NCBI GenBank assembly: GCA_030147845.1
Contig: JASBUN010000046.1
Coordinates: 64,430 to 128,429, forward strand
Length of the DNA: 64,000 bases
Direction: 5' to 3'
From: Gammaproteobacteria bacterium
Lineage (GTDB): Bacteria > Pseudomonadota > Gammaproteobacteria > JASBUN01
The notes beneath the pieces are model-generated. The model saw only the letters and a program-made list of their open reading frames with translations, was not told the DNA's origin and ran no database searches. Numbering within the stretch: position 1 is the stretch's first letter; every line of letters begins with the position of its first letter. Positions 8,153 to 62,823 of the stretch are shown one piece after another. The translations under genes and the position numbers were made by a program.

Positions 8153-8161
8153 GAACGCCTC

Positions 8162-8938: not shown

Positions 8939-8944
8939 CGCGGA

Positions 8945-9217: not shown

Positions 9218-9253
9218 TGCGGCTTTCTCCTGGTTGTTGGCATCAATGGCCGC

Positions 9254-25596: not shown

Positions 25597-26037
25597 TCAG
25601 ACTCCATTACCGACGCGCACTGACTCCCCGGCATGCGCGTTCTTGACCGATTCGGGAATGGCGTCCCAGCCGCTCTTCACTTCCAACATCAGGCGCGACA
25701 CTTCATCGATGATCTCGTCGCGGTTCTGCATATTGGCTTCGAGCAAGCGACGATTCATGTAGTCGTAGAGCGCCTCGAGATTTTCCGCCATCGCGCCGCC
25801 GGCCTCCATGTCGAGACTGGCGCGTAAGCCATCGATGATGGAAATCGCGCCACCGATATACTTGCCCTTGGCGGCGACCTCACCGCGTTGCATACAGCCC
25901 TTGGCGGTATGCAAGCGCTCCAACGCGCCCTCCATGAGCATTTGAATCAGGCGATGGGGACTGGCATCCATAATCGAACCCTGCACACCGACTTTGCGGT
26001 ACTGGCTCAACGCGCCTTGAATATTTCCGTAGCTCAT
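25597..26037 (-). CDS. fliS: Flagellin-specific chaperone FliS
   Basis: A 146-aa protein with a typical FliS four-helix sequence (GAISIIDGLRASLDME). Confidence 0.9.
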   Translation of the reverse strand: MSYGNIQGALSQYRKVGVQGSIMDASPHRLIQMLMEGALERLHTAKGCMQRGEVAAKGKYIGGAISIIDGLRASLDMEAGGAMAENLEALYDYMNRRLLEANMQNRDEIIDEVSRLMLEVKSGWDAIPESVKNAHAGESVRVGNGV

Positions 26038-26195
26038 TCGTGTTCCTCGCGATACGTTTGTGCTTGGTTTGCTATATCCAGTAGTACTTCGATATTAACT
26101 AGGTTAGCGACTCGTTCGGCGGTGGCTAAAGGCGTAGTCCTTGGAATTTTTCAGCCTACCGGGACTGTTTAATCTTGTTCACGCTCCGCGCCTGC

Positions 26196-27542
26196 TCAGC
26201 CTTTTATGGTCGGTAGTGACGCCAATTGCTGCGTCAGATAATTACCCTGGGTTTGCAGATTGGCAACCAATTGATCGAGTGCAGTGTACTGAGCTTGGTA
26301 GCGCTGTTGTATGCCCTGCAAGCGCAGCGTCATAGAATCAATTTGCGTCTGCACACTACTAATTTGCGTGTTGATCCCTTTTTGATGGGTGTCAACCAAA
26401 CCGCCGGTTTGCAGCAATTGATCCGCCATGCTCTTCAAGCGGAAGCCGTAGCCTTGATTATTGTTACCGAACAAATCCGCCACGCCGTTGGGATCGGTGT
26501 TCAGGGCAGCGGCAAATGCGGTCGGATCCAACGCCATGGTGCCATCCTTCTGGATGGACAGGCCGACTTCGGCCAAGTACGAATATTGGCTCGAGATACC
26601 ACTCGGCGGCGTGTTGAGGGTATCGCGCACCTGGTTCTGGATACTACGTAGCGTGTTATCGGCCTGCAAAGTAGTACTGCCCAGATCGGACATGGTCTTT
26701 TGTAGCGAATTGTAGGCATCGACGAAGGCCTGCGCCTTGGCGGTGATGCCTTTGGTATCGCGACTCAAGGTCAAGGTCGACGTGCCGGCGGCGGTAAGAT
26801 TCAAGGTCACGCCGGTAAGCATATCGGTGACCGTATTACTGCTACTGCTGATGGTATAGGTGCCGTCGAGCACCACCTGGGCATTCAAATCGGCCGAGGT
26901 AAAGACGCCATCGCCGTTGCGGTCTTTGTTCAACGACGTCAGCGCGAACGGATCGGTACCGCTATAGCTTACCGATGTATACCCAACGCTGCCGGTGTCG
27001 TTGGCCGACAGCAGTAAACGATAGCCTGAGGTGTCGTGAACGATGCTGGCGGTAACGCCGACATTGCCCGAGTTCGAATTGATGCTGTCGCGTATCTGGC
27101 TCAGCGTTTGGCCGCCATAACTCACGGTAAACGGCGTGTTACTGCCAACGGTGATGGTCATGGAATCGCCGGCGGTACCGATGGTGGTGGTACCGGTATC
27201 GGCATAGACGGTCGAGGCGCCGAGTTTGTGTTGCTCGGCAATGCGATTCACAGCGACGTTATAGGTGCCGCCGCCGGCGGTCGAATCGGCGCTGGCGGTA
27301 AAAACCGTGGTATCGGACGAGGCCGCGGAAAATAGCTTGAAATCGGACGGTGTGTTGAGGCCGCCCATGGCCGTTTGGAAAGCCGACAGCGCGCCGCTAA
27401 GTTTTCCATAGGCGCTCAGTTCGTCTTGGTAGGTCTGTTTGGTGGTATTGAGCTTGTTGAGTGGTATGCTCTCGACCGCCATCAGCTTCGAGACGATCGT
27501 ATTTACGTCAAGCCCTGAACCGACACCAGGTGAACTAATCAT
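26196..27542 (-). CDS. fliD: Flagellar filament cap protein FliD
   Basis: A 448-aa protein with conserved N- and C-terminal FliD coiled-coil regions. Confidence 0.9.
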   Translation of the reverse strand: MISSPGVGSGLDVNTIVSKLMAVESIPLNKLNTTKQTYQDELSAYGKLSGALSAFQTAMGGLNTPSDFKLFSAASSDTTVFTASADSTAGGGTYNVAVNRIAEQHKLGASTVYADTGTTTIGTAGDSMTITVGSNTPFTVSYGGQTLSQIRDSINSNSGNVGVTASIVHDTSGYRLLLSANDTGSVGYTSVSYSGTDPFALTSLNKDRNGDGVFTSADLNAQVVLDGTYTISSSSNTVTDMLTGVTLNLTAAGTSTLTLSRDTKGITAKAQAFVDAYNSLQKTMSDLGSTTLQADNTLRSIQNQVRDTLNTPPSGISSQYSYLAEVGLSIQKDGTMALDPTAFAAALNTDPNGVADLFGNNNQGYGFRLKSMADQLLQTGGLVDTHQKGINTQISSVQTQIDSMTLRLQGIQQRYQAQYTALDQLVANLQTQGNYLTQQLASLPTIKG

Positions 27543-27576
27543 GTGGCCTCCTGAAATGACCTCCGCAATGTAAAGT

Positions 27577-27591
27577 GCAAGTTCGGTGCCA
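27577..27591 (-). promoter_or_regulatory. Sigma54 promoter TGGCAC-cgaac-TTGC upstream of fliD.
   Basis: A perfect consensus in the flaG-fliD spacer, about 35 nt upstream of the fliD ATG. Confidence 0.65.
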
Positions 27592-27594
27592 GCG

Positions 27595-27957
27595 TCAGGC
27601 CTTGACCCTTAAAATGGTACCGTCCTGCAGTTGCTTAAGCGTACTGGCCAGTTGCAGAATTTCTTTGGGGGGGATTTGGCGCAGCACTTCTTTGCTACGC
27701 GAATCAACGACTTTTATCACAGTGCGGCCGCTATCGGAATCGATAGTAAACTCCAAATCGCGCTGGATGTTCTGTACATGGTCATTCAGTTCGCTTACGG
27801 CATCGGCTAACGACGCCGGCTTAGTCCCACTCCTTGCGCCAGCGGGCGGCAACGTGTTGCCGCTGCTTGTGCCGTTGGTGGCCGACGACGACCGCGGCGC
27901 CAACGTGCGTGCAGCGATCGACGATCCGGCGACTTGGGAAAGCGGTTGTGAAGACAT
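27595..27957 (-). CDS. flaG: Flagellar protein FlaG
   Basis: A 120-aa protein with a conserved FlaG C-terminus (IDSDSGRTVIKVVD...EVLRQIPP). Confidence 0.8.
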   Translation of the reverse strand: MSSQPLSQVAGSSIAARTLAPRSSSATNGTSSGNTLPPAGARSGTKPASLADAVSELNDHVQNIQRDLEFTIDSDSGRTVIKVVDSRSKEVLRQIPPKEILQLASTLKQLQDGTILRVKA

Positions 27958-27980: not shown

Positions 27981-28017
27981 TTAAAATAGCCGTTCGGGAC
28001 CTCCTGTCCCGAACGGC
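27981..28017 (-). terminator. Rho-independent terminator immediately downstream of fliC.
   Basis: A 12-bp perfect stem GCCGTTCGGGAC/GTCCCGAACGGC with a 5-nt loop, followed on the minus strand by TATTTTAA. Confidence 0.7.
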
Positions 28018-28043
28018 CAGCCATTGGTGACGTTGAGCCGCGT

Positions 28044-28886
28044 TTAACGCAACAGTGCCAGCGCCGACTGCGGCAGCGCATTGGCCTGCGTGACCATGGC
28101 CACACCCGCCTGCTGTAGCACCTGGGCACGGGTCAACTTGGCGGTCTCCGCAGCGAAGTCTGCGTCCTGGATTCGACTGCGGGCAGCCGTCAGGTTCTCC
28201 GCGTAGACGCTCAAGTTGGAAATAACGGCGTCGAAACGGTTCTGCACCGCACCCATGTTGGTCTGCGCCGTAGCGACGGTTTTGATGGCGCTGTCCATAT
28301 TGGTGATGGCTGCCGAAGCCGTAGCCGCCGAACTGACGTCCACCGTGTTGGTTGCGGTAACCGAAGAGCTATAGCCGCTGATACCGGTCAAGCTGGACAG
28401 CGTGACACTCACCTGGTTGTTGGCCGTACCATTCTGACCAACCTGGAAGCTCAAGGAAGTGGTCGAACCGTCCAACAATTGCGTGCCGTTGAACGAGGAG
28501 GTGGCGACAATGCGCGAAATTTCCTGGGTCAGCTGATCGACCTCAGCCTGAATACCACTGCGGGCATCGTTGGAGGTCGCGCCGTTGGCAGACTGCACCG
28601 CCAATTCACGAATACGTTGCAAGTTTTTCTGTACTTCGGCCATACCACCTTCGGCGGTCTGCGCGAACGAAATACCGTCCGCCGCGTTGCGCGAGGCCTG
28701 ATTGACACCCGTAATAGCCGCAGTCTGCAACGAAATGTTGTACAGGCCGGCAGCGTCGTCCTTGGCGCTATTGACGCGTAGACCAGAGGACAAGCGCTGG
28801 ATTGCTGTTTGCAGATCCATGCTGTTCCTGGACAAATTGCGCTGCGCATTCAGCGAAGCCAGGTTGGTATTGATTGTAAGAGCCAT
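28044..28886 (-). CDS. fliC: Flagellin FliC, a short 280-aa form with a Ser/Thr-rich central region.
   Basis: It has the conserved D0/D1 termini (MALTINTNLASLNAQRNL...; LQQAGVAMVTQANALPQSALALLR). Confidence 0.95.
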   Translation of the reverse strand: MALTINTNLASLNAQRNLSRNSMDLQTAIQRLSSGLRVNSAKDDAAGLYNISLQTAAITGVNQASRNAADGISFAQTAEGGMAEVQKNLQRIRELAVQSANGATSNDARSGIQAEVDQLTQEISRIVATSSFNGTQLLDGSTTSLSFQVGQNGTANNQVSVTLSSLTGISGYSSSVTATNTVDVSSAATASAAITNMDSAIKTVATAQTNMGAVQNRFDAVISNLSVYAENLTAARSRIQDADFAAETAKLTRAQVLQQAGVAMVTQANALPQSALALLR

Positions 28887-28998: not shown

Positions 28999-29026
28999 TG
29001 TAACGGCCACGGGCGCGCCAAACTTT
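28999..29026 (-). promoter_or_regulatory. Sigma28 (FliA)-type promoter TAAAGTTT-N12-GCCGTTAC upstream of fliC.
   Basis: The -35 element is a perfect consensus. The -10 element matches GCCGATAA at 6 of 8 positions. It lies about 110 nt upstream of the fliC start, and an AT-rich tract lies further upstream. Confidence 0.45.
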
Positions 29027-29107
29027 AGGCTCTCCACAACAAAAATTTGACGTCCTTATTTTATTTCGCGATTTATATTTATCCAATTGTTTTTATTAAC
29101 TTTTATT

Positions 29108-31048
29108 TTATACCGGCGTATCCAACGCCAAAGACCCATGAGGCGACGGGTGACCGACGTCGGTCACCCGTAACGGTCGCGGCGCCAGCCCGGACAGCCG
29201 AACCTGCCACATCATTTGGTAGGCCGACTCAAGCGCGCGCACGAAGCGCTGGGGATCGAACAGCGGGCCGTGCTCACGTTCGATCACCAGCCGCTGACGC
29301 AGACTGGCCAAAACCTCGGGCTGGCGCGCCAGACGTAACGCCTGGGCGGCATAAGCGGCGCGGTCTTCGCTGATCAACTCGGTCAGTCCAAGGCAGCGCA
29401 ATAAACTGGCCGACACCCGCGAGGCAAATGTCGAGCCGGGACAGGTCAACACCGGAACGCCCGCGCGCAGGGAATCGCTGGCTGTGGTGTGCGCGTTGTA
29501 GTACCAGGTATCGAGAAACAGATCGGCCAAGCGATGACGAGCCAGATGCGCCGGCCGCATAACCCGTTCGGCAAATATCAGCCGCTCGGCGGCAACACCG
29601 TGGCGCACCGCTTGGCGTCGAAGATTGCGCTCGGCCTCCGGCGACGTACGCAGCAGCCAAAGCACACTACCCGGCACCTGACCGAGAATGCGCATCCAGA
29701 CCGCGAATAATTCCGGATCGATTTTGTACGTATTGTTGAAACAGCAGAATACAAAGCTGGACTCCGGCAGTCCCACCTGGGCGCGTGTCGGCGTTTGCGT
29801 GGCCGAAAAGTGCAGGTAATCGTTGACCTGGTAACTGTGTGGCAAATAGACCGGCTGTTCGGTGTACGCAGCCGCCAGTTCCGCCGGCAGTACGCACTCA
29901 TCGACGACGATGTAATCCATAAAATCTGCGCCCAACGTCCCAGGATAACCCAGATAGCTGACTTGAACCGGTGCCGGACGGCGGGCAAACACACCGGCGC
30001 GCATATTCCAGGTGTATCCCTTCAGATCGACCAGAATGTCGATGCCGTCGCTGGCCATACGCTCGGCAATGGCGTCTTCGGTCCAGCCGTCAACGTCGCA
30101 GAACTGATCGCAGTCCTGTTCGATCCGACGACGGTAGTCGCTGCCGTCGTCGCCTCCCCAGCTGTAGATGGAAACCTGGAAGCGGCTGCGATCGTGCAGC
30201 GCAAACAGACTCAGCATGAGCTGAGCGGTCGGGTGATCACGAAAGTCCGCCGAGGCGTAGCCAATGCGCAATCGTTGCCGGGCACCCGGCCGCGGATGCA
30301 CCGGCGCGCCACTCAGCGGTCTGCAGTGCGCAAGCGCATGGCGGGTATAATTTTCCGCGATACGCCGTTGCATTGCTGTATCGATCGGCAATGACAACGA
30401 CATGAACGGCGACATCGGCGTGAGGCGATCCTCGTCGAGCGCCGTTCGCGTTACTCGCAGCAGTTGCTGCAGTCGTGCCGGCCACTCATCCCACGCGCAC
30501 ACCGCCTGATCGAGCAAAACCAGATTCGAGAGTATATAGGGATCGTTTGGGTCGAGCTGACAGGCGCGTTCCAACCAGTGCCGCGCCTCGTCCAGCCGGT
30601 CGAGTTGTCGACAAACCAAACCGAGATCATTACAGCTCGCCGCCGATCCAGGATTCAGCTCGACGGCGCGCAGCAACGCTTCACGTGCATCGGGCAATTC
30701 CCCAGATTCGCATAGCGCATTACCGAGTTTATGGTATGCGTCATGCAGCGTTCCATCGAGCCGAATAGCCTCGCGAAGCAGCGCCGCCGCGGCGCGGTGA
30801 TTTCCCAAACGGAGGTGTTCGGTGGCATCCGCGAGGCGCGATTCCGCATCGCTACACACCATCGTCTGAGCAGCGCGCTGCTCGAAAAGGATCGCCAGCA
30901 GCTGGCGGGCATGCGATTGCAGCGGATCGACAAGAAGTATTTGTTCGTAGATGGCCTGCGCGGTCTCCAGATCGCCGTCACGATGCCTGGCGATGGCGCT
31001 GCGCAACATCACTTCCACCTGACGCCGCTGAATCCGTTCACTGACCAT
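29108..31048 (-). CDS. TPR-repeat protein with a C-terminal OGT-like (GT41) glycosyltransferase domain; a candidate flagellin O-glycosyltransferase.
   Basis: A 646-aa protein with N-terminal TPR repeats. Its C-terminal half (RIGYASADFRDHPTAQLM...LRPAPVQVSYLGYPGTLGADFMDYIVVD) closely parallels the catalytic region of eukaryotic O-GlcNAc transferase. Confidence 0.8.
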   Translation of the reverse strand: MVSERIQRRQVEVMLRSAIARHRDGDLETAQAIYEQILLVDPLQSHARQLLAILFEQRAAQTMVCSDAESRLADATEHLRLGNHRAAAALLREAIRLDGTLHDAYHKLGNALCESGELPDAREALLRAVELNPGSAASCNDLGLVCRQLDRLDEARHWLERACQLDPNDPYILSNLVLLDQAVCAWDEWPARLQQLLRVTRTALDEDRLTPMSPFMSLSLPIDTAMQRRIAENYTRHALAHCRPLSGAPVHPRPGARQRLRIGYASADFRDHPTAQLMLSLFALHDRSRFQVSIYSWGGDDGSDYRRRIEQDCDQFCDVDGWTEDAIAERMASDGIDILVDLKGYTWNMRAGVFARRPAPVQVSYLGYPGTLGADFMDYIVVDECVLPAELAAAYTEQPVYLPHSYQVNDYLHFSATQTPTRAQVGLPESSFVFCCFNNTYKIDPELFAVWMRILGQVPGSVLWLLRTSPEAERNLRRQAVRHGVAAERLIFAERVMRPAHLARHRLADLFLDTWYYNAHTTASDSLRAGVPVLTCPGSTFASRVSASLLRCLGLTELISEDRAAYAAQALRLARQPEVLASLRQRLVIEREHGPLFDPQRFVRALESAYQMMWQVRLSGLAPRPLRVTDVGHPSPHGSLALDTPV

Positions 31049-31061: not shown

Positions 31062-34000
31062 CTACTCGGGAATCACGATATGGGAAGCGGGCTTGCCCGC
31101 TTCCCAGAGCGCCCACATGCGCCGGTAGGCCGACTCCAGGTAACCCACGTAACGCGGTGTATCGAATAGAGGTTGTGTCATTCGGTTTTGCTGCAGGCGT
31201 TGACTCAACTGCAACAACCGCGCTTTGTCACTGGCAAGCGTCACCGCCAGATCTTCATACTGTTGCAGGCTGGCGGTGACCAGCTCCGGTAAACCGACCG
31301 CGTGCAGTAGACTGGCCGCTACGCGCGCGGCGAACGTTTGGCCAGGACAGGTAATCAACGGCAAGCCCGCCCATAGCGCGTCGCTGGCGGTAGTGTGCGC
31401 GTTGCAGTAGAGCGTGTCGAGCAACAGGTCAGCATGCGCGTGACGGGCCAAATGTTCCGGTTTAGGCAGGCGCGGCGCGAACACCAGCCGTTGTGGATCA
31501 ATACCCCGCCGTTCGGCTTCACGCGACAAGTTGAATTGAGCTTCTTCCGATGCTTTGAGCAGCCAAAGAACACTTCCGGGCACGCGCGCGAGGATTCGCA
31601 TCCAAGCGTCAAATATCGTCGGTTCGATTTTGTAGTTGTTGTTGAAGCAACAGAAAACAAACCCCGTTTCCGGCAATCCGCACGCCTGGCGGCTTGGCAC
31701 TGTCTGCGCAATGGCTTGCCTGTGGTCGTTAACCTGATACGAATGCGGCATATAGACCAATTGTTCACGGAAAAACTGCCTCGACTCCGGCGGCGTGACG
31801 TTGGCGTCGCTGATCATATAGTCCATGTATTCAGCGCCCAGCGAGCCGGGATAGCCAAGATAGTTGACCTGTATCGGGGCCGGGCGTAAGGCGAAGATCT
31901 CGGGACGTATGTCGCGCGTATAGCCCTTCAGGTCCACCAGTATATTGATACCGTCATCGGCCACTCGTTGCGCAGTGCGCGCGTAATGTTCATCACTAAT
32001 GTCAATAAAGTGTTCGGTATCCCGCTCGATACGTGTGCGATACTCGCTGCCATCGTCAGATCCGAAAGAATATGCAAAAATTTCGAATTCGTCACGGTCA
32101 TGCAGCCCGAACAAACTCAGCATGAGCTGCGCGGTGGCGTGCGTATAGAAATCCGATGATACGTAACCGATGCGTAAGCGGCCGCTACGCCGCGCACCCG
32201 CGGTAATTTTTATCGCCGGCTCGGTGATCGTCGGCCGAATCACGGTCTGTACATAATTCGCCGCGATGTCGCGCTGCAGGCTCGGCGAAATCGATAATGT
32301 TACCGCATAGAACGGCGTAATTGGGCTGCGCTGTTTTTGTTCGATGAATCGGGCCGTCCACTGCGCCAACTTATCCAGCAGTTGTTCATGCCCATCCCAA
32401 AAACAAATGTCCTGGTAGACTTGAATCAAATTGGCCAGCGCCTGTACGAAATCAGGCTTGACATTAAGCGCTTTGCGATACCAATTGACTGCCTCGCCGT
32501 AGCTGCCGAAATCACGGCATAGCGCACCGAGATTGCTATATACTTCGGCCCGCTCCGGCTGTAGTTCTATTGCTTTGAAATAGCACTCGGCGGCTTCGCG
32601 CGGGCGTGCCTGCGCCTTGCGCACGTTGCCCAGGTTGTTCCAGGCTTCCGCCAATTCGGGTCGCTTCGACAGGACGCGGTTATAACACTCGGCGGCCGCA
32701 TCCAGTCGATGGCGTGTCAAGTGGATATCACCCTGCTTTAAATCCGCCTCGACGTTGTTCGGATCGTAGCCGGATGAAATTTGGTAATGCTCCAGCGCGC
32801 GCTCGAGATCACCTGAGATCTGCAACAAGTGGCTCAAGCGACAATGCATGCGCGACTGCTGCGGTTCGAGTTGCACCGCACGTTCCAAGCAACGGGCTGC
32901 AGCTTCAATCTTACCCTGCTGTTCATAGATCAGACCCAAGTTGTAAAAGCTGTCGGCGTGATCTTGGCACAGCTTTTGGTGACTCTCATAATAACTCGCG
33001 GCGGCATCCAGCTCACCGCGGGCATGCAAATTAGCAGCCAGTAATACGTGCGCATCCGCGAAACAAGGATCGCAATCTATGGCCTGCTTGAAGCACACCG
33101 CCGCTGCCTGCACATCGCCCCGCTGCTGATAGACGCTACCCAATGATGAATGCAGTAGCGCAACGTTCGGTTTCAGCTCAATGGCGCGCTCGATGAGTTC
33201 GGCTGCACGCGCCAAGCGGCCGCCGCTATGTTCGATTACGCCTAACAGGTGCAACGCATCGACGTTGTCGGGCGTCAGATCAAGTACATCCGTATAAACT
33301 TTTTTAGCTAAATCCAACTCACCGGACGAATGCGCCGCTACCGCCTTCTGCAACAACTGCGGGATCCGATCCGGCGACGCGATCGTTTCGGACGTGATGG
33401 TCATTGTTTTTCTGTGCAGCGGCTGTGCTGCCCGCTGTCGCAATGCCGCGTCCACCTGCGCCAGCGTGCCGTCCCAATCACCTGAACTGATCTGGCGAAA
33501 TAAACGCGCCGATGCATACCACGGGCTGTCGTCGCGCCCCGCCAACCAGCGCCAGTCGGCGGCGGCATCGAGCAGCAGCCAGACCTCGCGCCCGAGTGTG
33601 CCGGCCAAATGCGCCACCGCCGTGTCGACAGTGACAATCAAGTCCAGGTTAAGCATCGCCGCCGCGGTATCGGCAAAGTCGTATAGCTGCGCATCAAGCG
33701 CCGTCACGCGCCCGGCACCAGCGGCGTGCGCCAGCTCCCGCGCCGGCGGCCCTTTCTGCAAACTATAAAACGCAGTACCCGGGATCTCGGCCAGCCGCAG
33801 CAGCAAGTGCAACGGGCAAGCGCGTCTGCGATTGTTCGGTTGCTCCGTGTTGCCCGACCAAACAATACCGATGCGTAAGCGCTCTTGATTGCCAATACGA
33901 TCGCGCCATTGCTGCACCAACTCGGCGGCGATCACGGGCGCTTGCGGCGCAGGAATCTGCTCAATGGCGCGACTGTAGAGCGCCGGTAGACTTAAAAGTG

Positions 34001-34988
34001 GAATATGCACGTCGAATTCTATTTTTCCGTCGTCGACATCCTCGCGCGCAACGATTTCGTCAGCGAACCCAGACCTTTGATACAAACGTGAAAGCGCCGC
34101 CGGGCATTCGAACAGTACCCGCCCGCCCGCTTGCAGCACGCGCGGCAAATAGCGCGCGAATTGCAGCGTGTCGCCGAAGCCCTGTTCGGACCAGACCAGG
34201 ATGCGGCGCCCGTTCAGCGCCGCACCGTCCCAGCGCGGAACAGAAAAACTGCGCTGCACGCGCTCGCCACACGCAAAGCCCCACTCATACTCCGGCCAGC
34301 CGCGTGCAAAATCGCCTAATTGCAGCCACAACAGTGAACGGTTCCAGTGCGCCTGCGGCAGTTGTGGCGACAAGCCCAAGGCGCGTTCATAGAATTCAAG
34401 CGCACCGTCAAATTGACCAAGCGCCTGCAACGCGTTGCCGACGTTGCTGTAGGTCGCCGCATGTCCCGGCCGTATCTCCAGCGCCTGCCGGTAGCAATCG
34501 ATGGCTCGACCCGGCTCACCGCGCTGTTTGACCACGTTACCTAAATTGACCAGAGCATCAAAGTAGCGCGGACGCAGACTGATCGCGCGCAACAGGTGGC
34601 TCTCGGCGTCCTCCAAGTGGCCGAGAGCACGTAGCGCAACGGCGTAGTTATTGTGCAACTCGGCGTTGCCCGACTGCATAGGCAACGCCATGCTATACAC
34701 CTCGGCCGCTGCACCCGCCTCGCCGTTGGCGAAGAAGGCGCTGCCGAGCAGTTGATACAAAGCGACCAAGCTCGGGTTTTGCTCCAAGCCGCGCTGGCAA
34801 TGCACGATCAGTTCCGGATAACGGTGCTGCGCGAGGAGCAGCTCACCGAGACGTATCAGTGTATCGGCATGGGCCGGTTGCGCTAGCAACAACGCGCGAT
34901 AGCGATGCTCGCTCTCTACCTCACCGCCCTCGCTCGCCCGGGCATGCGCGTTCAGCGGCAACACTCTCATTTTCCGCCCGCGGCGCAC
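31062..34988 (-). CDS. A 1308-aa multidomain protein: TPR, a GT9 (heptosyltransferase-like) domain, TPR, and an OGT-like GT41 domain.
   Basis: It carries the GT9 signature (DLIVTVDTAVAHLAGTLGREVWLL...W). Its C-terminal module is paralogous to the preceding gene (RIGYVSSDFYTHATAQLM...LRPAPIQVNYLGYPGSLGAEYMDYMISD). Confidence 0.8.
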   Translation of the reverse strand: MRRGRKMRVLPLNAHARASEGGEVESEHRYRALLLAQPAHADTLIRLGELLLAQHRYPELIVHCQRGLEQNPSLVALYQLLGSAFFANGEAGAAAEVYSMALPMQSGNAELHNNYAVALRALGHLEDAESHLLRAISLRPRYFDALVNLGNVVKQRGEPGRAIDCYRQALEIRPGHAATYSNVGNALQALGQFDGALEFYERALGLSPQLPQAHWNRSLLWLQLGDFARGWPEYEWGFACGERVQRSFSVPRWDGAALNGRRILVWSEQGFGDTLQFARYLPRVLQAGGRVLFECPAALSRLYQRSGFADEIVAREDVDDGKIEFDVHIPLLSLPALYSRAIEQIPAPQAPVIAAELVQQWRDRIGNQERLRIGIVWSGNTEQPNNRRRACPLHLLLRLAEIPGTAFYSLQKGPPARELAHAAGAGRVTALDAQLYDFADTAAAMLNLDLIVTVDTAVAHLAGTLGREVWLLLDAAADWRWLAGRDDSPWYASARLFRQISSGDWDGTLAQVDAALRQRAAQPLHRKTMTITSETIASPDRIPQLLQKAVAAHSSGELDLAKKVYTDVLDLTPDNVDALHLLGVIEHSGGRLARAAELIERAIELKPNVALLHSSLGSVYQQRGDVQAAAVCFKQAIDCDPCFADAHVLLAANLHARGELDAAASYYESHQKLCQDHADSFYNLGLIYEQQGKIEAAARCLERAVQLEPQQSRMHCRLSHLLQISGDLERALEHYQISSGYDPNNVEADLKQGDIHLTRHRLDAAAECYNRVLSKRPELAEAWNNLGNVRKAQARPREAAECYFKAIELQPERAEVYSNLGALCRDFGSYGEAVNWYRKALNVKPDFVQALANLIQVYQDICFWDGHEQLLDKLAQWTARFIEQKQRSPITPFYAVTLSISPSLQRDIAANYVQTVIRPTITEPAIKITAGARRSGRLRIGYVSSDFYTHATAQLMLSLFGLHDRDEFEIFAYSFGSDDGSEYRTRIERDTEHFIDISDEHYARTAQRVADDGINILVDLKGYTRDIRPEIFALRPAPIQVNYLGYPGSLGAEYMDYMISDANVTPPESRQFFREQLVYMPHSYQVNDHRQAIAQTVPSRQACGLPETGFVFCCFNNNYKIEPTIFDAWMRILARVPGSVLWLLKASEEAQFNLSREAERRGIDPQRLVFAPRLPKPEHLARHAHADLLLDTLYCNAHTTASDALWAGLPLITCPGQTFAARVAASLLHAVGLPELVTASLQQYEDLAVTLASDKARLLQLSQRLQQNRMTQPLFDTPRYVGYLESAYRRMWALWEAGKPASHIVIPE

Positions 34989-37900
34989 GCGCCGGCAGCC
35001 GCGCCTTCCGTGCCGAGACCCTGCAACCAGTCATCAAAATGATCGTCAAGCATCCAATGCTCATGTGTCCATGCGCGTAGTGCATCACCTTCCCGGCGAC
35101 TGGCGTCAAGATCATTGACGCGTTCCCGTATGGCTTTAATCCACGCCGCCGACGTGTTCGCGACCCGCGTGACCGGCGCATCGCGGTAAGGCTCAATATC
35201 CGTGCAAACTACCGGCCAGCCGAGCGCGCCGTACTCAAGCAGTTTAAGGTTACTTTTGCACTGATTGAAACGATTGTGCGCCAGCGGCGCAACGGCAAGA
35301 TCCAGATCGAGCGCCGCCAAGGTGTTCGGATATTGCTCAAACACAACCGGGTTGTGCACCTCCACACCCAGCGAAAGCCACTCTTCGAAACACAGGCCGA
35401 AAAATACCCACTGGACTTCACTGGCCGTTTTCTTCACGACCTCGTGAATGATGTCTAAATCACCGCTGTGCTGCTGCGCGCCGGCCCAACCGACCCGCGG
35501 CTTGTCGCCGCGACCGCGACGCGATTTCAGCGCCTTCCAGATCGAGCCGTCCAGGTAGTTCGGCACAACCACAATATCATCGCTCCACCCGCGGTACGCC
35601 TGCGCAAGTGCCTCAGTGCTAACAAGCAGCCGGTGACAGGCGCTCATGGCACGGCGCAGACGCTTCTTTACGTCTGGATACACACTCGTGCTGAAACTGT
35701 TATAGCTCGGCAAATGATCGATCAAGTCGTCCTGACCAAACACCAGAAACACGTCTTTGTTGAACCGCCGGTAACGATCCAATGCTTCCAACTGCACGTC
35801 GTGCAATGTGTTGTGGGCCAGCAGAATGTCCGGTGCTTCGCGCGCCAGTTCGGACACACTCGGCACTCGTACACGCTCGATGCATTCCGGAAGCAGATGG
35901 GTCGTCGCCCGCCGCGCGCGCCGTAGCGCTTGCATGGGAATATCCAATCGATGCTGACGCGAGCCCGATGACCCAAGGCTCATGCCTAAGATGCGTGGAC
36001 CATCCGCGCCGTCGTCCCACTGTGCGCACATTTCACTATCCACCGAGTAATCGGTACGTATTAGATTGAGATTGCGGTTGTAGGCCGGATCGCGCGCCAA
36101 TTTCGGCAACCAGCGCTCAAGCATGACTGCAACTTCATTTTTCGCCTGCTGCCATTTTTTCGCATCCTGGTAGTGCCCGTCTTTAAGGCTTGCCGAGCCA
36201 TGATGCACAGCGGTGGAATACGGTGTCCAGACGACGCGAAACCCGTGTTCGCGCACCTTCAAGCACAGATCGACGTCGTTATACATCACCGCCAGCTGGT
36301 CCTCGTCCATACCGCCGACTTGTTCGTAAATCGATTTACGGATCAAAAGACAAGCGCCGGTCAGCGCCGATACGTCGCGCGGACTCTGCGCGATGTTCAT
36401 GGGACCAGCGATTGACATCGGAGCGCCAAAAAACGGATGTTCGGCAACCCCATTTTGGCCCATGCCTAAAACTACGCCGGCATGCTGAATACGCTGATCT
36501 GGAAATACCAACCGCGGGCCAACGGCGCCGACATCCGGTCGCTGCGCCTGACTCATTAAACGGTCCAACCAATTCGGCTGGACAATCACGGTATCGTTAT
36601 TAAGTAATAACAGGTAGTCACCGCATGCTTGCGACGCGGCGACATTGTTGATTGCCGAATAATTGAAAGGATGATCGTAGCGAACCACCGACACCCGTTT
36701 GTGGCGCTGAGCAACCTCGTCCAGATAGCGCAAAGTCCGTTGGTCATCCGTCTGATTGTCGACGACAATCACTTCAAAGTTCTTATAGCCGGTTTTATGC
36801 AGCAGACTCTCCAGACACGGCTCGAGCACGTCCCGGCGGTTGCGCGTCGGCACGATGATCGACACCAACGGTTGAGCGCTGTGCTGATAGTCGATCAGAA
36901 AGCTGCCCGTAGCCAAACCCGGTTCGACCTTGGCGTCGACGCCGGCGCGCGTCAAATGCCCTTCCACGAGGCTCATACCCTGTTCTGACGTCACTTCGCG
37001 TCGTCGCGCGTTAACCTCTAACTGATGTACAAGGACGTCGGCAATATGACCTACGGCTTCGCCGCCAAAAGTCTCGACGACACGCAAACACAAATCGTGA
37101 TTGACCAGCGACCCGAGGCTGACGACACCACCGATGGCAGCTAAAACGGTGCCTTTGACCAGGCAGAAACTGCCTACATAGGCGCAACTTCGCAGCAGTT
37201 CAAGATTGAGGTCCGGCTTGAAACGGGGGTGTGAGCGCGCGCCATCGACGTCGACCGTGTCTTCGTCGGTGTAGACAAATCCAATCGAGGGATTACGTTC
37301 AGCGAATTTCGCGCAGGCGAGCAATGCGCCGGCATCGAGTTGATCGCCGGGTTCCAACAGTGTCACCCAATCCGCGGCGGTTGTCGCGACTGCGGCATCG
37401 ATCGCCGCCGCGATTTCCCGCTCAGCGTGTATCCATTCAAGCATGTCGAGTTCTTCGAACATGGGATCAGGACAGGCCATGGCGGAAACCACCGTCAGGC
37501 CCCAGCCGCCGTAAAGCTGCGCAGACATGCTGTCAATCGTCTTCGCAAGATGCTCAATCGAATCCTCATCGACCACAATGATCACGTGTATGGTTGGCTT
37601 GTGCACCAAACCATCGATCGTTTCCTGTGCGTGTGCTCGCTCGGCGTCGGCACGATGACCACGATGGCGTATCCACTCTGAGTAGGGTTCGACTGTCACC
37701 TTATCAGACGACTCATGCTCGACCTCAACTTCATCTGCATGCGGTATCGGTGCCGGGCGCACGGCGCGTTGCGCGGCGATTGCAGCCAGCTCTGACAAAA
37801 AATCGGCACGTTTTGCGTCGCTCTGATATTTCGCGGCGGCCTGGCAAGCCGCTTCGCCAATTGACGCGCGCAGGGCGGGGTCGGACGCCAAGCGATACAT

Positions 37901-40900
37901 CCACTTCGCCGCTTGCTCAATATCGGCATCAGCCCATACCGCGTCGGCGCCGACGCGCTCACGGCTATAAGCGTTAATTGATGCCTGCACAGGAACTAAG
38001 CGATAATTGACCAGACAGGCGTTGGTGTGGTCCATGAAGCTCATGTTGCCGGACCAGCCGGTCGCGATCACCGGCTTGCCTAACGCCATCGCCTCCATCA
38101 TCCCCAAACCGAAGCCCTCGGCCCGGTGCAGCGACACGAACACATCGCAGCTGGCGTACAACGACAAAACGTCGCTGTAGCTCAACGTATCCGTGATTAA
38201 ATGGACGTTGGCACGGACGCCGCAATAGTCGCGCAAATCCTTAACCCATGCACGCCGTTCGCCGGCGCCGGATGCGCCATTCAGCTTAATGACCAAATGC
38301 GCCGACTGATCGTCGGCGAAAGCGTGCTGGAAAGCCGCCAGCGTCGCGGCCGGGTTTTTGCGTTCCGGATCGCTGTTAAGATCAAAGCTGGAAATGAAAA
38401 TCGTCGCCTTGTCCGGCAATCCGAAGCGATCTCGCTGTGGAGACGACGTGCCCTGCTCGGGCAGCGGGTGTTTAGCGCTCAACACCGGTACGCCGGACAC
38501 CGAAAACGCTAATGCATGACGGATGAAGTCCGATTGCGCAATGAGCACATCCATCGACTGTAGTGCATCCGACCAGCCTCGCGGCAACACGGCCAATTCC
38601 CAAACGCACCAGCAGGCATTAAAACGTGCCGGATTTTGGATAATTTCCGGATATTTGCTAATGAAGCCGGACAAATCCGCGAGTGGAAATACGAATAGAT
38701 TAATTGCATGAGGAAGATCTGTGACCGCATCGACACAGAACCTCTCGAAGCACCGGTCGAACTTTCCGCGCCCCGCACCAGGATCGACGTCATATACCGC
38801 AACCGAACAGCCTTGATCCAAGAGCACCTGCACCACGCTACGCGCCGTAACGCCGACGCCGAGATTACCACTGACGTAGCCAATGACATTGACACCGATG
38901 TTGAGTTTTTGCTTACGCGGGACATCCATATCCGTGACCGTTACCACGGCATCATCGACTTGCATCGGTGCGCGTTGGATCGCCGGTTTAACGTCGGCGC
39001 AGCGCAAACGAACGCGATCCCCGGCCGCGAACATCTGTTCGGCCCGACTACGCTCGCCGATCTGATTCAACGCTTCGCCCAATAGCCAGTATAGGTCCTC
39101 ACAATCCGGATGTAGCTCAACTGCCTTTTCAAGATAAGCGGCGCCATCCTGGGCCGCGTTGGCGTCAATGGTCGCGAGTGCCAAGCCGAGCGTTGCCGGG
39201 CAGCTGTCAGGCATGCGCAGTGACTCGCCGCCATAGAGATGGTCGTTCACCAATCGGTGGACGTAGTAATCCTTCCAAAAATGTGTTTGCTGGACGCCGG
39301 AAAGCTCAGCGACAGCCGGCAAACAGGCGGCCAGCCAGTCTTGGTCCTTGCGCGCGTACGGCGTAACCGATTTTCCGTCTGCGCGCAGCAGACGCATCTT
39401 TGCGAACGTCCGATCGACGTTACAAAACCGGTAGCCCGCGAGCGCTGCCCGCACCCAAAAATCCAAATCGACCGCATACGGCAAATCCTCACGAAACCGC
39501 CCCACCGCGCGTATCAGTTCGGCCGTGAAAAACATCGCGGGCTGAAAAATGTGCAACGGGCGATGCCAACGCAACAGGCGCTGCAGGTCCATTGTCGGCG
39601 GAGGCACGCGAATGCCGATAGGATGGTCGTTCTCCCCAAGAAGGACCACATTGCCGTAGATGAGGTGTACTCCGGCGCCAGGATCAAGCGCTTCCGCGGC
39701 TGTCACAAGTGCGCCTTCGAGGTAAAAGTCATCGGCATTCAACCAACCGATGATGTCACCCGACGCCATCTCCAGCGCTTTATTCAGGGCATCCGGCTCG
39801 CCCCGGTCAGGCTCTGAAATCCAATGTACATGCGGATAATCCCGCAAAATATCCAGCGTCTGATCGTCTGAACCGCCGTCGACGACGATATGCTCGAAGT
39901 TGTCGTAACCTTGCGCGAGTACGCTGTCAATGCATTGTCGAATATAGGCCGCGCAATTCAGCGCCGGCGTAATGATCGATATTTTTGCGCCGCACCCCTG
40001 CACGCCACGTCTACGGGTTGATTCTACCGCCTCACGCATATTCACTCCGTCCGTCTGCCTCGGTGCTGAGCGAGCGTCATGCGACTGCACCCCGATTTTC
40101 CTCGTGCTAGCACCATCGGCGCCAAGGCATTCAACATTCGTATGTTGCCGTGCCGAGCGCACACCCCGGCGCGTTTGCACAGCGTCGAGCATCTGCTGCC
40201 ATCTGCCGGCCTGCACATCAGCGCAAAAATTCTGTCGTATGGTCTCACGCGCTGCTGAGCCCAGCGTCTTGCAGCGCTCGGGATCGCGCCACAGTTCAAC
40301 CACGAAGCGCGCAAACTCTTGCGCGTTGCGCGCGATTAGACCGTTTTTGCCGTGTTCGATCGGCGATTGATCGGCAACGTTCCGCAGTGCAATCACCGGT
40401 ACGCCGTAGGCCATGGATTCGAGAATTTTCACCTGCATTCCGGTACCGCCGATCACCGGACATATGGCGAAGCGGCTTCTCGTATACACGTCACTCAGTT
40501 CGGCTACGTAGCCCGCCAGCTCGACACCGGCCACCGGCACAATCTTGTTGCATGCGCCACCGATCACTTTCAAAACAAACTCCGGGCAGGCCGACCGTAC
40601 GGTCGGCAGCACATTCGCGGCAAAATAGGCGTAGCCTTGAATATTCAAACAGTAATCGGACACCACCAACACAGGCGCACTGTCGTAGCTATTGTCGACG
40701 TTCACAATCTCATAGGTAATCGGGATTTCTTCGACCAATGTTTGCGATGTATGATTTTGAATCAGTTTCGCGTCCAACGATGAAAAGGCCACCGTCACGT
40801 CGTAGTTGTCATAAATCGCATATTCTTCCGCGCCCGCTAACAACGTGCTTAAGTCGATACCCGAATAGAAGTTTTCGGAAAGCGCCGCGGGATTGACTGC

Positions 40901-41395
40901 AGCCGGCTCCACCGGCACCTTGAGATACGGCGCGATACGCGCCTGCATGTGCTCGTTTAATGTCAGTGAGTCGTGACTAACGATGACGCGAATGGCGCTC
41001 TTGTACTCGTCCCCGAGCGCCAATCTTCCCCACCACGCATAATGCACGACAACCAGGTCCGGTTGGATTTTCTGGAACAGGTCACGAAAAGCGTCAAGAA
41101 GCCATGGCGGATTGAAGCGGCTCCAACTGTTTGGCGCCTTACCCCCTTGCCGCGCCGTGTAGAGCGCATCTAACCAGTCACCACCGTAGTAATATACCTG
41201 TGCGCCGAATTCGGTGTTCAGATAATCAACCGCTTCTTTGCTCCACGGAATATCGGTCGAAACAGAAGTCCCGAAAACATGCAGCTCATAGCCGATACTC
41301 GCCAACGCCCGAAGTATCGCCAGTTCACTTCGATGTGTGCCGGTTTGTGGCGGATACGGACAGTAGGGATCAAATACCAGCGCTTTCAATTTCAT
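34967..41395 (-). CDS. A 2142-aa cytoplasmic protein made of about six glycosyltransferase modules (GT4, GT2, GT4, GT2-like, GT2, GT4-like).
   Basis: Repeated GT-A signatures are present (ISIITPALNCAAYI...VVDGGSDD...NADD; VSIIVPTRNRRDVL...VVDNQTDD...NNDT). GT-B C-terminal signatures are also present (HRAEGFGLGMMEAMALGKPVIAT). There are no transmembrane segments. Confidence 0.8.
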   Translation of the reverse strand: MKLKALVFDPYCPYPPQTGTHRSELAILRALASIGYELHVFGTSVSTDIPWSKEAVDYLNTEFGAQVYYYGGDWLDALYTARQGGKAPNSWSRFNPPWLLDAFRDLFQKIQPDLVVVHYAWWGRLALGDEYKSAIRVIVSHDSLTLNEHMQARIAPYLKVPVEPAAVNPAALSENFYSGIDLSTLLAGAEEYAIYDNYDVTVAFSSLDAKLIQNHTSQTLVEEIPITYEIVNVDNSYDSAPVLVVSDYCLNIQGYAYFAANVLPTVRSACPEFVLKVIGGACNKIVPVAGVELAGYVAELSDVYTRSRFAICPVIGGTGMQVKILESMAYGVPVIALRNVADQSPIEHGKNGLIARNAQEFARFVVELWRDPERCKTLGSAARETIRQNFCADVQAGRWQQMLDAVQTRRGVRSARQHTNVECLGADGASTRKIGVQSHDARSAPRQTDGVNMREAVESTRRRGVQGCGAKISIITPALNCAAYIRQCIDSVLAQGYDNFEHIVVDGGSDDQTLDILRDYPHVHWISEPDRGEPDALNKALEMASGDIIGWLNADDFYLEGALVTAAEALDPGAGVHLIYGNVVLLGENDHPIGIRVPPPTMDLQRLLRWHRPLHIFQPAMFFTAELIRAVGRFREDLPYAVDLDFWVRAALAGYRFCNVDRTFAKMRLLRADGKSVTPYARKDQDWLAACLPAVAELSGVQQTHFWKDYYVHRLVNDHLYGGESLRMPDSCPATLGLALATIDANAAQDGAAYLEKAVELHPDCEDLYWLLGEALNQIGERSRAEQMFAAGDRVRLRCADVKPAIQRAPMQVDDAVVTVTDMDVPRKQKLNIGVNVIGYVSGNLGVGVTARSVVQVLLDQGCSVAVYDVDPGAGRGKFDRCFERFCVDAVTDLPHAINLFVFPLADLSGFISKYPEIIQNPARFNACWCVWELAVLPRGWSDALQSMDVLIAQSDFIRHALAFSVSGVPVLSAKHPLPEQGTSSPQRDRFGLPDKATIFISSFDLNSDPERKNPAATLAAFQHAFADDQSAHLVIKLNGASGAGERRAWVKDLRDYCGVRANVHLITDTLSYSDVLSLYASCDVFVSLHRAEGFGLGMMEAMALGKPVIATGWSGNMSFMDHTNACLVNYRLVPVQASINAYSRERVGADAVWADADIEQAAKWMYRLASDPALRASIGEAACQAAAKYQSDAKRADFLSELAAIAAQRAVRPAPIPHADEVEVEHESSDKVTVEPYSEWIRHRGHRADAERAHAQETIDGLVHKPTIHVIIVVDEDSIEHLAKTIDSMSAQLYGGWGLTVVSAMACPDPMFEELDMLEWIHAEREIAAAIDAAVATTAADWVTLLEPGDQLDAGALLACAKFAERNPSIGFVYTDEDTVDVDGARSHPRFKPDLNLELLRSCAYVGSFCLVKGTVLAAIGGVVSLGSLVNHDLCLRVVETFGGEAVGHIADVLVHQLEVNARRREVTSEQGMSLVEGHLTRAGVDAKVEPGLATGSFLIDYQHSAQPLVSIIVPTRNRRDVLEPCLESLLHKTGYKNFEVIVVDNQTDDQRTLRYLDEVAQRHKRVSVVRYDHPFNYSAINNVAASQACGDYLLLLNNDTVIVQPNWLDRLMSQAQRPDVGAVGPRLVFPDQRIQHAGVVLGMGQNGVAEHPFFGAPMSIAGPMNIAQSPRDVSALTGACLLIRKSIYEQVGGMDEDQLAVMYNDVDLCLKVREHGFRVVWTPYSTAVHHGSASLKDGHYQDAKKWQQAKNEVAVMLERWLPKLARDPAYNRNLNLIRTDYSVDSEMCAQWDDGADGPRILGMSLGSSGSRQHRLDIPMQALRRARRATTHLLPECIERVRVPSVSELAREAPDILLAHNTLHDVQLEALDRYRRFNKDVFLVFGQDDLIDHLPSYNSFSTSVYPDVKKRLRRAMSACHRLLVSTEALAQAYRGWSDDIVVVPNYLDGSIWKALKSRRGRGDKPRVGWAGAQQHSGDLDIIHEVVKKTASEVQWVFFGLCFEEWLSLGVEVHNPVVFEQYPNTLAALDLDLAVAPLAHNRFNQCKSNLKLLEYGALGWPVVCTDIEPYRDAPVTRVANTSAAWIKAIRERVNDLDASRREGDALRAWTHEHWMLDDHFDDWLQGLGTEGAAAGACAAGGK

Positions 41396-44520: not shown

Positions 44521-46026
44521 TTAGGCCGATTGTTGCAGACGCTCGACGCGATCCAGCGCTTGGCGCACGGTCGCCACGGTGTCGGCCTGTCCGTCCATGG
44601 TTTCCAGCACCGCAATCACGTTGCGTAGCGTTGCCGGATGTTCGGCGTTCACCTCCATGCTACGCTGTAGATATCCCAGTGCAGCCGCCGGATCACCACG
44701 TGTCCAGGCGACCGTACCGAGATTATTCAAAGCTTCCGCATGTCCAGACTCGATATTCAACACCTGCTGAAACGCGTTGGTGGCGCCATCAATATCGCCG
44801 CGCTGAAATAGCAGTTCACCTTCGGCGTTAAGCGCATCCGCCGACGACGAATCAGCGCCGACACTAGGGGCCGGACGCGCGGGCGTGAACGTGTCGCGTA
44901 AATCCGACAAGCGCTCGCGGATCTCTTGGTCGTCGGGGAAATCGGCGAGGTAGCTGGTGTACAAAGTCTCGGCATCAGCATGGCGATCACTGGACAGCAA
45001 TACCTGACCCGCATTCAGAACCAGATTGCGGTTGTCCGGCGCATGCTCCATGCCGCGGGCGAAACATTGCAAGGCTTCACCTCCCTTACCAAGCGCCCAG
45101 AGGCATACACCCAGGTTGTCAAGCGTCTGTGGGTCGGTCGGGGCCAGTTGCAACGCTTGTTGAAAGCTGCGCAGCGCGGCAACCAAATCGCCCGCATTAT
45201 AAAGCTGTTCTCCGACCGCGTTGAGTTGCGTCAGTTCCGTCGTGTCGTCGTAGGCAGTCGTCCTTTGGCCGCTTTGCGCGCGCCATTCGGGGTACAGGCG
45301 ATCCATCAACGGTGAGCACCAGCGCTCGAAGGCGGCCCACTCCGGCTCGCCCCACGACACCGCAATATCGGCCTGGCCGGCGGCAGGCTCATCAAGATCA
45401 AACATCACTTGCGGTCCGTGCTTGAGACCGAGCCAGTCCATCAGCGCGCCGATATCCCGGCCGAGATCCTCCAGCCGTACAAGGCGAAATTGCGCATTGC
45501 GGGCATGTGTTCGTAGATCCGATTCGATCAACTGATTGATGTAGCCCCAATACCAGCACCGCTTTTCAAAGGCGGTCATGTTTGCCCACGCCTGTGCATC
45601 GACATCACCGCAAAAATCGCCGCGTACTTGACCTTGTATCCAGCGCTGTTCAACCGCCGACATACATCCATCAGCCCGCTCATGGTTGCCGTACCAACCT
45701 TTTAGCGATGCGGAGTTCACGAAATCGATAGCGTTGCGAACCAACCAAAGGTAGTGCGCCTCGGGGAACGCGCGCGACACCGCAGGAATAACCCACGATA
45801 AGGCGCGACTGGATTCGCCATACGGCTTATGATTTTGCGTGGCTGAGCGGGTGAGTCGCAGCATTCTTTCGATCTGTTCTGCGCTCGCGTTACCGTATCG
45901 AAATGCCGACGCCTCCTCGATCAGCATCGGTTCGGGTTCATGCAAGCACACGCAACGGCTCTGCTCGAGCAAGACATTCGCGACCGATAACATGCCGCAT
46001 TGCCCGGTACCGAAAATAAAAAACAT
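44521..46026 (-). CDS. A 501-aa protein with an N-terminal P-loop sulfotransferase-like domain (degenerate PAPS-binding motifs) and C-terminal TPR repeats.
   Basis: It has a MFFIFGTGQCGML 5'-PSB-like loop and a YLWLVRNAIDFVNS 3'-PB-like motif. The C-terminal 200 aa are TPR-like (ALNNLGTVAW, LDNLGVCLWALG). Confidence 0.5.
   Translation of the reverse strand: MFFIFGTGQCGMLSVANVLLEQSRCVCLHEPEPMLIEEASAFRYGNASAEQIERMLRLTRSATQNHKPYGESSRALSWVIPAVSRAFPEAHYLWLVRNAIDFVNSASLKGWYGNHERADGCMSAVEQRWIQGQVRGDFCGDVDAQAWANMTAFEKRCWYWGYINQLIESDLRTHARNAQFRLVRLEDLGRDIGALMDWLGLKHGPQVMFDLDEPAAGQADIAVSWGEPEWAAFERWCSPLMDRLYPEWRAQSGQRTTAYDDTTELTQLNAVGEQLYNAGDLVAALRSFQQALQLAPTDPQTLDNLGVCLWALGKGGEALQCFARGMEHAPDNRNLVLNAGQVLLSSDRHADAETLYTSYLADFPDDQEIRERLSDLRDTFTPARPAPSVGADSSSADALNAEGELLFQRGDIDGATNAFQQVLNIESGHAEALNNLGTVAWTRGDPAAALGYLQRSMEVNAEHPATLRNVIAVLETMDGQADTVATVRQALDRVERLQQSA

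Positions 46027-62747: not shown

Positions 62748-62823
<76 letters not shown>

Follow-up and report, generated by a model that had tools for sequence, protein, structure and literature searches.

The fliC gene of the 64,000-nucleotide stretch of gammaproteobacterial contig JASBUN010000046.1 analysed here (the window) encodes a 280-residue flagellin reduced to its D0 and D1 domains, and a Ser/Thr-rich segment of this protein, residues 144-199, is probably the outward face of D1 and an acceptor surface, its Ser/Thr being O-glycosylated in the cytoplasm, ahead of export, by the enzymes of an adjacent glycosyltransferase (GT) island. The island lies between flgL and fliC; its products include two enzymes of glycosyltransferase family 41 (GT41a and GT41b), of the O-GlcNAc transferase (OGT) type, and a 2142-aa fusion protein whose C-terminal module is a separate gene upstream of fliC in many relatives. 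The parts of fliC on which the prediction turns are as follows.

28044..28886, minus strand: fliC, a 280-aa D0/D1-only flagellin (Pfam, AlphaFold2 (AF2) model, Foldseek)
28290..28457, minus strand: Ser/Thr-rich segment, FliC residues 144-199, 21 Ser/Thr of 56 (exact peptide match, composition)
28401..28457, minus strand: D1 beta-hairpin, residues 144-162 (SLSFQVGQNGTANNQVSVT), with strands at 144-148 and 158-162 (DSSP on the AF2 model)
28329..28400, minus strand: connecting coil, residues 163-186 (LSSLTGISGYSSSVTATNTVDVSS), with 12 Ser/Thr, in place of D2/D3 (no regular secondary structure; predicted local distance difference test score, pLDDT, 74-88)
28290..28328, minus strand: first part of the C-terminal D1 helix, residues 187-199, including S191 and S199 (helix from 187 in the AF2 model)
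28572..28577, minus strand: FliC T104-S105 in the ND1a-ND1b loop, outside the segment, a candidate acceptor (helix break at 103-105 in the AF2 model)

FliC is confirmed as a D0/D1-only flagellin without an inserted D2/D3 domain, and the minimal 280-aa protein described in an earlier, sequence-only reading of the window is borne out by three lines of analysis. Pfam places Flagellin_N at residues 5-143 (E 4e-39) and Flagellin_C at 195-279 (E 3e-22), finds no other domain and leaves 51 residues between the two. The AF2 model, made with 39 homologs in the alignment (mean pLDDT 76; 74-93 over residues 140-200), consists of long D0/D1 helices, one beta-hairpin and one coil, and nothing more. Foldseek comparison of this model with the PDB returned D0/D1-only filaments or filament cores at template-modelling (TM) scores of about 0.7, namely the P. 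aeruginosa core, Kurthia 6T17, Roseburia 9HPZ, Shewanella FlaA/FlaB (9OXJ/9OXK/9LAH), Caulobacter and B. subtilis. The protein belongs to a large family of flagellins, 277-284 aa long, from uncultured Gammaproteobacteria, with named relatives among metagenome-assembled genomes in Thiogranum, Thiohalobacter, Chromatiales, Methylophaga and Sedimenticola.

The same reading had quoted a central peptide dominated by Ser and Thr, and this is matched exactly by residues 144-199, where the two make up 21 of 56 residues (37.5%) as against 39 of 224 (17.4%) in the remaining FliC (Fisher p = 0.002). The segment is without Lys, Arg or Glu, and Ser, Thr, Ala, Val, Asn and Gly account for 77% of it. The coordinates first assigned to it (28244..28469) are in frame but wider than the peptide, covering residues 140-214, and its description as a single central loop holds for the true coil of residues 163-186 but not for residues 144-162, which form a beta-hairpin, nor for 187-199, where the D1 helix starts. 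DNA repeats as the source of the Ser/Thr richness were ruled out, no tandem repeat being found.

When residues 140-200 are compared with those of 142 homologous short flagellins (143 sequences in total), the window FliC, with 24 Ser/Thr in 61 positions, ranks in the top 4 of 143, the family median being 18 of 61 (30%); on this comparison the richness reads as partly a family trait and partly lineage-specific. Despite its label as ‘variable’, the segment is conserved, with 75% mean column identity in the family and F147, Q148, G150 and T167 invariant. Its hydroxyls differ in their reach across the family: those of the hairpin at 144, 160 and 162 are kept in at least 78% of the 143 homologs; in the coil T167, T177, T179, T181, S185 and S186 are conserved family-wide while S164, S170 and S174 are subclade-specific; and in the helix start S191 is conserved in 86% and Ser/Thr199 in 83% of homologs.

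Glycosylation sites mapped in other short flagellins fall in this same region. The 282-aa FliC of P. syringae carries O-glycans on Ser143, 164, 176, 183, 193 and 201, all of them in the tryptic peptide N136-R210; the first rhamnose is attached to Ser by Fgt1, and deletion of fgt1 gives unglycosylated flagellin. In FlaB of Shewanella oneidensis, mass spectrometry and mutants show modification of S105, S143, S171, S180 and S185, and cryo-electron microscopy densities lie at T/S106, S143, S173, S180 and S185. The Shewanella glycopeptide L137LAGGFSAGK146 is co-linear with L137LDGSTTSLS146 of the window FliC, and the mapped sites of both P. syringae and Shewanella fall in the co-linear stretch that holds the 24 Ser/Thr of residues 140-200. 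Six O-glycan densities are present in the Kurthia filament, and Listeria flagellin has GlcNAc (N-acetylglucosamine) added by GmaR, an enzyme other than a GT41, in line with the Listeria precedent that had been invoked for the window. The proposal that a hydroxyl-rich loop serves as an O-glycosylation site has precedents in P. syringae, Shewanella and Kurthia, but the Ser/Thr richness itself, in a family with a median of 30%, is undiagnostic.

A residue-level mapping of the P. syringae sites was attempted with an inexact pv. tabaci FliC sequence, for which an exact look-up found no match, and the published positions were used instead. On that inexact sequence the six glycosylated Ser align to T143, S164, S174, T181, S191 and S199 of the window FliC, an alignment that is indicative only. 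Three 282-aa Pseudomonas flagellins (L035, L037 and L039) were rejected as proxies for P. syringae, being without Ser at the P. syringae site positions.

The second part of the argument is the island itself, which runs for about 17 kb from flgL to fliC and comprises five genes that together encode seven GT domains, one methyltransferase domain and long tetratricopeptide repeat (TPR) arrays. Glycosyltransferase genes are thus clustered beside a flagellin gene, the arrangement by which flagellin glycosylation islands are recognised.

46071..46967, minus strand: flgL, 298 aa, the upstream border of the island, directly after flgK (Pfam Flagellin_N only)
44521..46026, minus strand: TPR protein of 501 aa, next to flgL in the island (Pfam)
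41438..44017, minus strand: 859-aa protein with methyltransferase, TPR and GT2 domains (Pfam)
34967..41395, minus strand: 2142-aa multi-glycosyltransferase with domains in the order GT4, GT2, TPR, GT4/GT1, GT2 (Pfam, NCBIfam)
34970..37690, minus strand: C-terminal module of the 2142-aa protein, residues ~1236-2142 (homology to fliC-adjacent genes of relatives)
31062..34970, minus strand: GT41b, ~1302 aa, with ~850 residues of TPR and an OGT-type catalytic domain (Pfam Glyco_transf_41, E 2.8e-119; many TPR matches)
29108..31048, minus strand: GT41a, 646 aa, with TPR in the first ~180 residues and an OGT-type catalytic domain (Pfam Glyco_transf_41, E 2.5e-110)

The four genes on the fliC side are tightly packed, the intervals between them being 42, -22 and 13 nt; the fifth gene stands 503 nt away, and 221 nt lie between the end of the island and fliC. 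For GT41b the automatic open reading frame begins at GTG 34988; in relative L080 the ortholog begins at the position corresponding to ATG 34970. This is the likely start of GT41b and would share 4 nt (ATGA), stop codon included, with the 2142-aa gene. NCBIfam names for the island proteins were not adopted, all matches lying below the cut-offs and reflecting generic GT or TPR similarity only. No sugar-nucleotide synthesis genes were found by Pfam and NCBIfam among the island proteins or the other scanned window genes, and the same proteins yielded neither a Maf domain nor domains for pseudaminic or legionaminic acid synthesis; the absence of sugar-nucleotide synthesis genes from the window fits a housekeeping donor such as UDP-GlcNAc. 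In one relative (L165, 2197..9952) the island has, before its GT41 and fliC genes, genes for a nucleotidyltransferase, a hexapeptide acyltransferase, FdtA and a DegT-type aminotransferase, which by their domains would form a pathway to an aminated, acylated deoxyhexose.

GT41a and GT41b both have the OGT-type layout of an N-terminal TPR array followed by a GT-B domain (PF13844). Against PDB chains GT41a scores 429 bits with human OGT (E 3e-127), 299 bits with XcOGT and 195 bits with SPINDLY, and it shares with human OGT and XcOGT the TPR region, both catalytic lobes and the residues that contact UDP-GlcNAc. It is without the intervening domain of OGT: the aligned stretches are near-contiguous in the query (413 to 420) and lie apart in OGT (710 to 830). 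The catalytic domains of GT41a and GT41b share 52% identity and, in an alignment of 127 relatives with human OGT numbering, the equivalents of H558, Y841, K842, H901, H920, T921, T922 and D925 are all kept in both enzymes. As a best guess, the GT41 enzymes would add N-acetylhexosamine (HexNAc), most likely GlcNAc from UDP-GlcNAc.

Linkage of these enzymes to fliC is strict within the subclade to which the window flagellin belongs, which we define as flagellins at least 70% identical to it and which is represented by eight contigs with usable upstream sequence. A TPR-GT41 gene is directly upstream of fliC in all eight (the window, L080, L081, L083, L165, L172, L173 and L174), and the closest relatives of the two GT41 catalytic domains outside the sister genome, a 688-aa protein of L083 and P0128 (54-61% identity), are both fliC-adjacent; a further GT41 relative, P0185, lies within an alpha-type flagellar cluster. 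In the outgroup, with flagellins 58-67% identical, no GT41 catalytic domain was found within 10 kb at the genome loci. What the outgroup has instead is the other candidate: of its loci with at least 4 kb of upstream sequence, 11 of 16 have, before fliC, a gene homologous to residues ~1236-2130 of the 2142-aa protein, at 40-49% identity to the C-terminal module. The module is present in GT41-bearing relatives too (50% identity in L165; 61% over the last 221 residues in L083), and a flagellin-island gene of Pseudomonas sp. nanlin1 (L037) shares 37% identity with the 2142-aa protein over residues 1342-2116. Because the module is widespread beside fliC in the family, we read it as the ancestral flagellin-linked glycosyltransferase and the GT41 genes as a later addition. 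The 2142-aa protein is thus a fusion, whose last ~900 residues are a separate gene upstream of fliC in many relatives and whose N-terminal ~1230 residues (GT4, GT2, TPR, GT4/GT1) are extra relative to that gene. The proposal that the OGT-like neighbours have FliC as their target therefore stands in part: the enzymes are genuine GT41 proteins in a constant position, but the module is the more widely conserved neighbour and, as set out below, GT41 relatives at large are rarely flagellar.

The flagellin of the GT41-bearing subclade has itself changed. A two-residue insertion has produced the T104-S105 pair, which is found in only 11 of the 143 flagellins, these making up the whole GT41-associated subclade, and whose location matches the glycosylated S105/T,S106 of Shewanella FlaB; S170 and S174 are likewise restricted to this subclade.

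Building on this anatomy, homology, gene linkage and conservation of catalytic residues, we propose a predicted route of modification, in which each step, the donor sugar and the sites are likewise predictions. The TPR arrays would dock unfolded or partly folded flagellin, as in Caulobacter FlmG; a protein-directed transferase would then add the first sugar to Ser/Thr; the remaining GT2 and GT4 domains and the methyltransferase would extend and decorate the glycan; and the glycoprotein would be exported and polymerised with its glycans at the filament surface. The first sugar could be added either by the C-terminal module of the 2142-aa protein or by the two OGT-type GT41 enzymes, and our best guess is that the module and the GT41 enzymes both act on flagellin, the GT41 targets being, again as a best guess, at least partly T104/S105, S170 and S174. 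We more tentatively suggest that GT41a, with ~5 TPRs, and GT41b, with its ~850-residue TPR region, are dedicated flagellin O-HexNAc transferases, recruited once on top of an older system of a different type, as the flagellin gained T104-S105, S170 and S174; this is possible, and we would hold it less firmly than the glycosylation of the segment as such.

A number of points weigh against glycosylation of the segment by the island enzymes, and against a part in it for GT41. On the acceptor side, Ser/Thr-rich composition is general in this flagellin family and on exposed flagellin surfaces; exposure of the segment at the filament surface is itself deduced from homologous structures; T167, T177 and T179 are among many conserved hydroxyls that may be structural; and maps of the short B. 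subtilis flagellin are without glycan density. The density of Ser/Thr is also a poor tracker of GT41 presence: flagellins linked to GT41 have 20.5 Ser/Thr in residues 140-200 as against 17.8, a weak trend (p = 0.06) that is confounded by phylogeny, the sequences being non-independent. The co-occurrence of GT41 with T104/S105, S170 and S174 is, for its part, a single evolutionary event and a lead only. On the enzyme side, Phe takes the place of OGT H498 in GT41a, in GT41b and in 116 of the 127 relatives, and the chemistry or the handling of the acceptor may, to judge from the alignment, differ from that of OGT. We take H498 to be UniProt H508, annotated as the proton acceptor; the catalytic role of this His in OGT is debated. 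A general flagellar linkage of the GT41 family was looked for and rejected, since among relatives with catalytic domains 45-54% identical flagellar genes are near only 1 of 80 metagenome loci, or 1 of 28 of those of at least 10 kb. At one locus (L168, 1874..12292) a GT41 relative, P0194, with 57% catalytic-domain identity, stands beside a 2691-aa protein without a Pfam match, in the company of other GT41 genes, methyltransferase genes and an ABC/HlyD pair for type I secretion, a neighbourhood which suggests a different, dedicated protein substrate.

Of the alternatives, the one that survives best has the flagellin O-glycosylated on the segment with only the C-terminal module starting the glycan, the GT41 enzymes modifying another flagellar or secreted protein or acting as regulators. 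It draws on the family-wide place of the module beside fliC (the 11 of 16 outgroup loci, the two GT41-bearing relatives and the Pseudomonas island gene at 37% identity), on the parallel with P. syringae, where loss of fgt1 abolishes flagellin glycosylation, and on the mostly non-flagellar setting of GT41 relatives elsewhere, including the one beside a giant protein and a type I secretion system. Yet all 8 subclade contigs have a GT41 gene immediately upstream of fliC, between module and flagellin gene; GT41 enzymes of known function have proteins as their substrates, and TPR arrays fit the docking of a protein; new hydroxyls have appeared in exposed flagellin loops in exactly the GT41-bearing subclade; and the module is only a putative counterpart of Fgt1/FgtA. 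We consider a module acting alone unlikely, while giving it more weight than the alternatives below.

Less likely again, and in our view improbable, is that the segment is an unmodified structural outer face of D1, its composition selected as a small, uncharged, soluble surface, and that the island serves some other target. The 75% mean column identity, with F147, Q148, G150 and T167 invariant, would fit a structural constraint, the Ser/Thr-rich composition is family-wide, and unglycosylated short flagellins such as that of B. subtilis do exist. Against this account, glycosyltransferase genes are kept between flgL and fliC, the classical position of a flagellin island, in most related genomes, and the comparably short proteobacterial flagellins examined in the literature are all glycosylated in this region. 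Lastly, that the GT41 enzymes are N-glycosyltransferases (HMW1C/NGT-like) acting on Asn-X-Ser/Thr sequons of flagellin is very improbable: the GT41 family does include N-glucosyltransferases, and FliC has six N-X-S/T sequons, among them N133-G-T at the edge of the segment and N152-G-T inside it, but both enzymes have TPR and match OGT, XcOGT, SPINDLY and T. terrenum OGT, the 53 PDB matches at E < 1e-5 include neither HMW1C nor ApNGT, and known bacterial flagellin glycosylation is all O-linked.

Seen beside known systems, the reading we prefer, glycosylation of the outward D1 face by the adjacent island enzymes, has a close parallel in P. syringae FliC and the fgt1/fgt2 island. The flagellins are of similar length (282 and 280 aa) and both D0/D1-only, the serines that bear O-glycans in P. 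syringae (six, from 143 to 201) all fall within this stretch, the glycosyltransferase genes are upstream of fliC, and one Pseudomonas flagellin island has a gene homologous to the module; identity between the window FliC and the 282-aa flagellins of Pseudomonas retrieved here is only about 47-49%. Unlike P. syringae, the window is without viosamine or rhamnose genes and has two GT41 enzymes and the 2142-aa fusion. The closest solved short flagellins are Shewanella FlaA/FlaB (9OXJ, 9OXK, 9LAH), at 42-43% identity and TM scores of 0.66-0.67, which carry glycans on the filament surface (S105/106, S143, S171/173, S180, S185) and whose numbering is co-linear with that of the window FliC at L137-L138; the Shewanella system uses Maf and a pseudaminic-acid pathway, domains of which were not found in the scanned window proteins.

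For the enzymes, the precedent is FlmG of Caulobacter crescentus, which binds flagellin through its N-terminal TPR domain and glycosylates it in the cytoplasm with a GT-B domain at the C-terminus. GT41a and GT41b have this FlmG-like layout, although they are far more similar to metazoan OGT, and FlmG transfers pseudaminic acid; from OGT, with its thousands of substrates, the window enzymes differ in being genetically tied to one candidate substrate. Listeria monocytogenes FlaA/GmaR is similar in joining a short flagellin with O-GlcNAc from a cytoplasmic, TPR-bearing glycosyltransferase, for which docking of flagellin by TPR has been proposed; in contrast to the window enzymes, the catalytic domain of GmaR is small (~180 residues), N-terminal and not a GT41, and GmaR is also an anti-repressor. 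GT41/SPINDLY-type enzymes were predicted computationally in enterobacterial flagellin glycosylation islands by De Maayer and Cowan (2016), and these islands resemble that of the window in having GT41 genes inside them together with a methyltransferase activity. They belong to peritrichous Enterobacteriaceae with long flagellins and have the methyltransferase mostly fused to GT41, whereas in the window it is fused to a GT2 protein. A cyanobacterial GT41, Ogt, is reported to be required for pilin glycosylation (PMC9306852). For Burkholderia FlmQ the glycosyltransferase family is not stated in the literature examined.

Much of what we describe has thus been described or predicted already: flagellin glycosylation islands, glycosylated short flagellins, TPR-bearing flagellin glycosyltransferases and GT41 enzymes in flagellin islands. 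Modestly novel are the strict pairing of an OGT-type enzyme with fliC in one lineage and the new hydroxyls in exposed loops, and glycosylation of the segment is at present a well-founded prediction at the level of annotation, not an unexpected one.

The glycosylation of flagellin has effects on how the filament assembles and on its surface properties, as well as on phage adsorption and immune recognition. For most bacterial OGT-like enzymes, to our knowledge, the physiological substrates are unknown. If the GT41 enzymes do modify flagellin, they would offer a simple system with one abundant, easily purified substrate, with two paralogous enzymes of very different TPR lengths and with natural ‘before and after’ variants of the flagellin, and could reveal how the acceptor sites of OGT-type enzymes are chosen by their TPR arrays. 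If they are dedicated to it, they would represent a natural, hard-wired bacterial pair of OGT and substrate, and the filament would carry two chemically different types of glycan.

The expression signals around fliC are those of a class-III filament gene, and its surroundings are those of filament genes, in the order flgK-flgL-(island)-fliC-flaG-fliD-fliS, with a tPilZ gene also downstream of fliC.

29000..29027, minus strand: sigma-28 (FliA)-type fliC promoter, TAAAGTTT-N12-GCCGTTAC (sequence reading)
27982..28018, minus strand: intrinsic terminator 3′ of fliC, GGCCGTTCGGGAC...GTCCCGAACGGC and a T run (sequence reading)
25597..27957, minus strand: flaG, fliD and fliS, downstream of fliC (Pfam FlaG, FliD_N/C, FliS)

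The hairpin terminator 3′ of fliC indicates that the gene is monocistronic. The pattern TAAA-N14-17-GCCGWTA has two sites in the window, against 0.12 expected; the second, TAAAGCTT-N11-GCCGATA at 59433..59458 on the plus strand, lies between flgA and flgN and is presumably a flgM/flgN promoter. An Rfam search for known RNA elements found none near fliC and two distant tRNAs only.

Related genomes differ in how many copies of these elements they carry. Among L010 (1853..4519 and 7290..9779), L012, L015 and L017, some have two copies of the module; in others the flagellin genes stand in tandem, two or three together, and no homolog of the window's glycosyltransferases was detected. Beyond the flagellar genes, the region 61277..63973 of the window holds a small GT2 gene (61965..62663, minus strand), two tRNA genes (62748..62820 and 62874..62947, plus strand) and further open reading frames.

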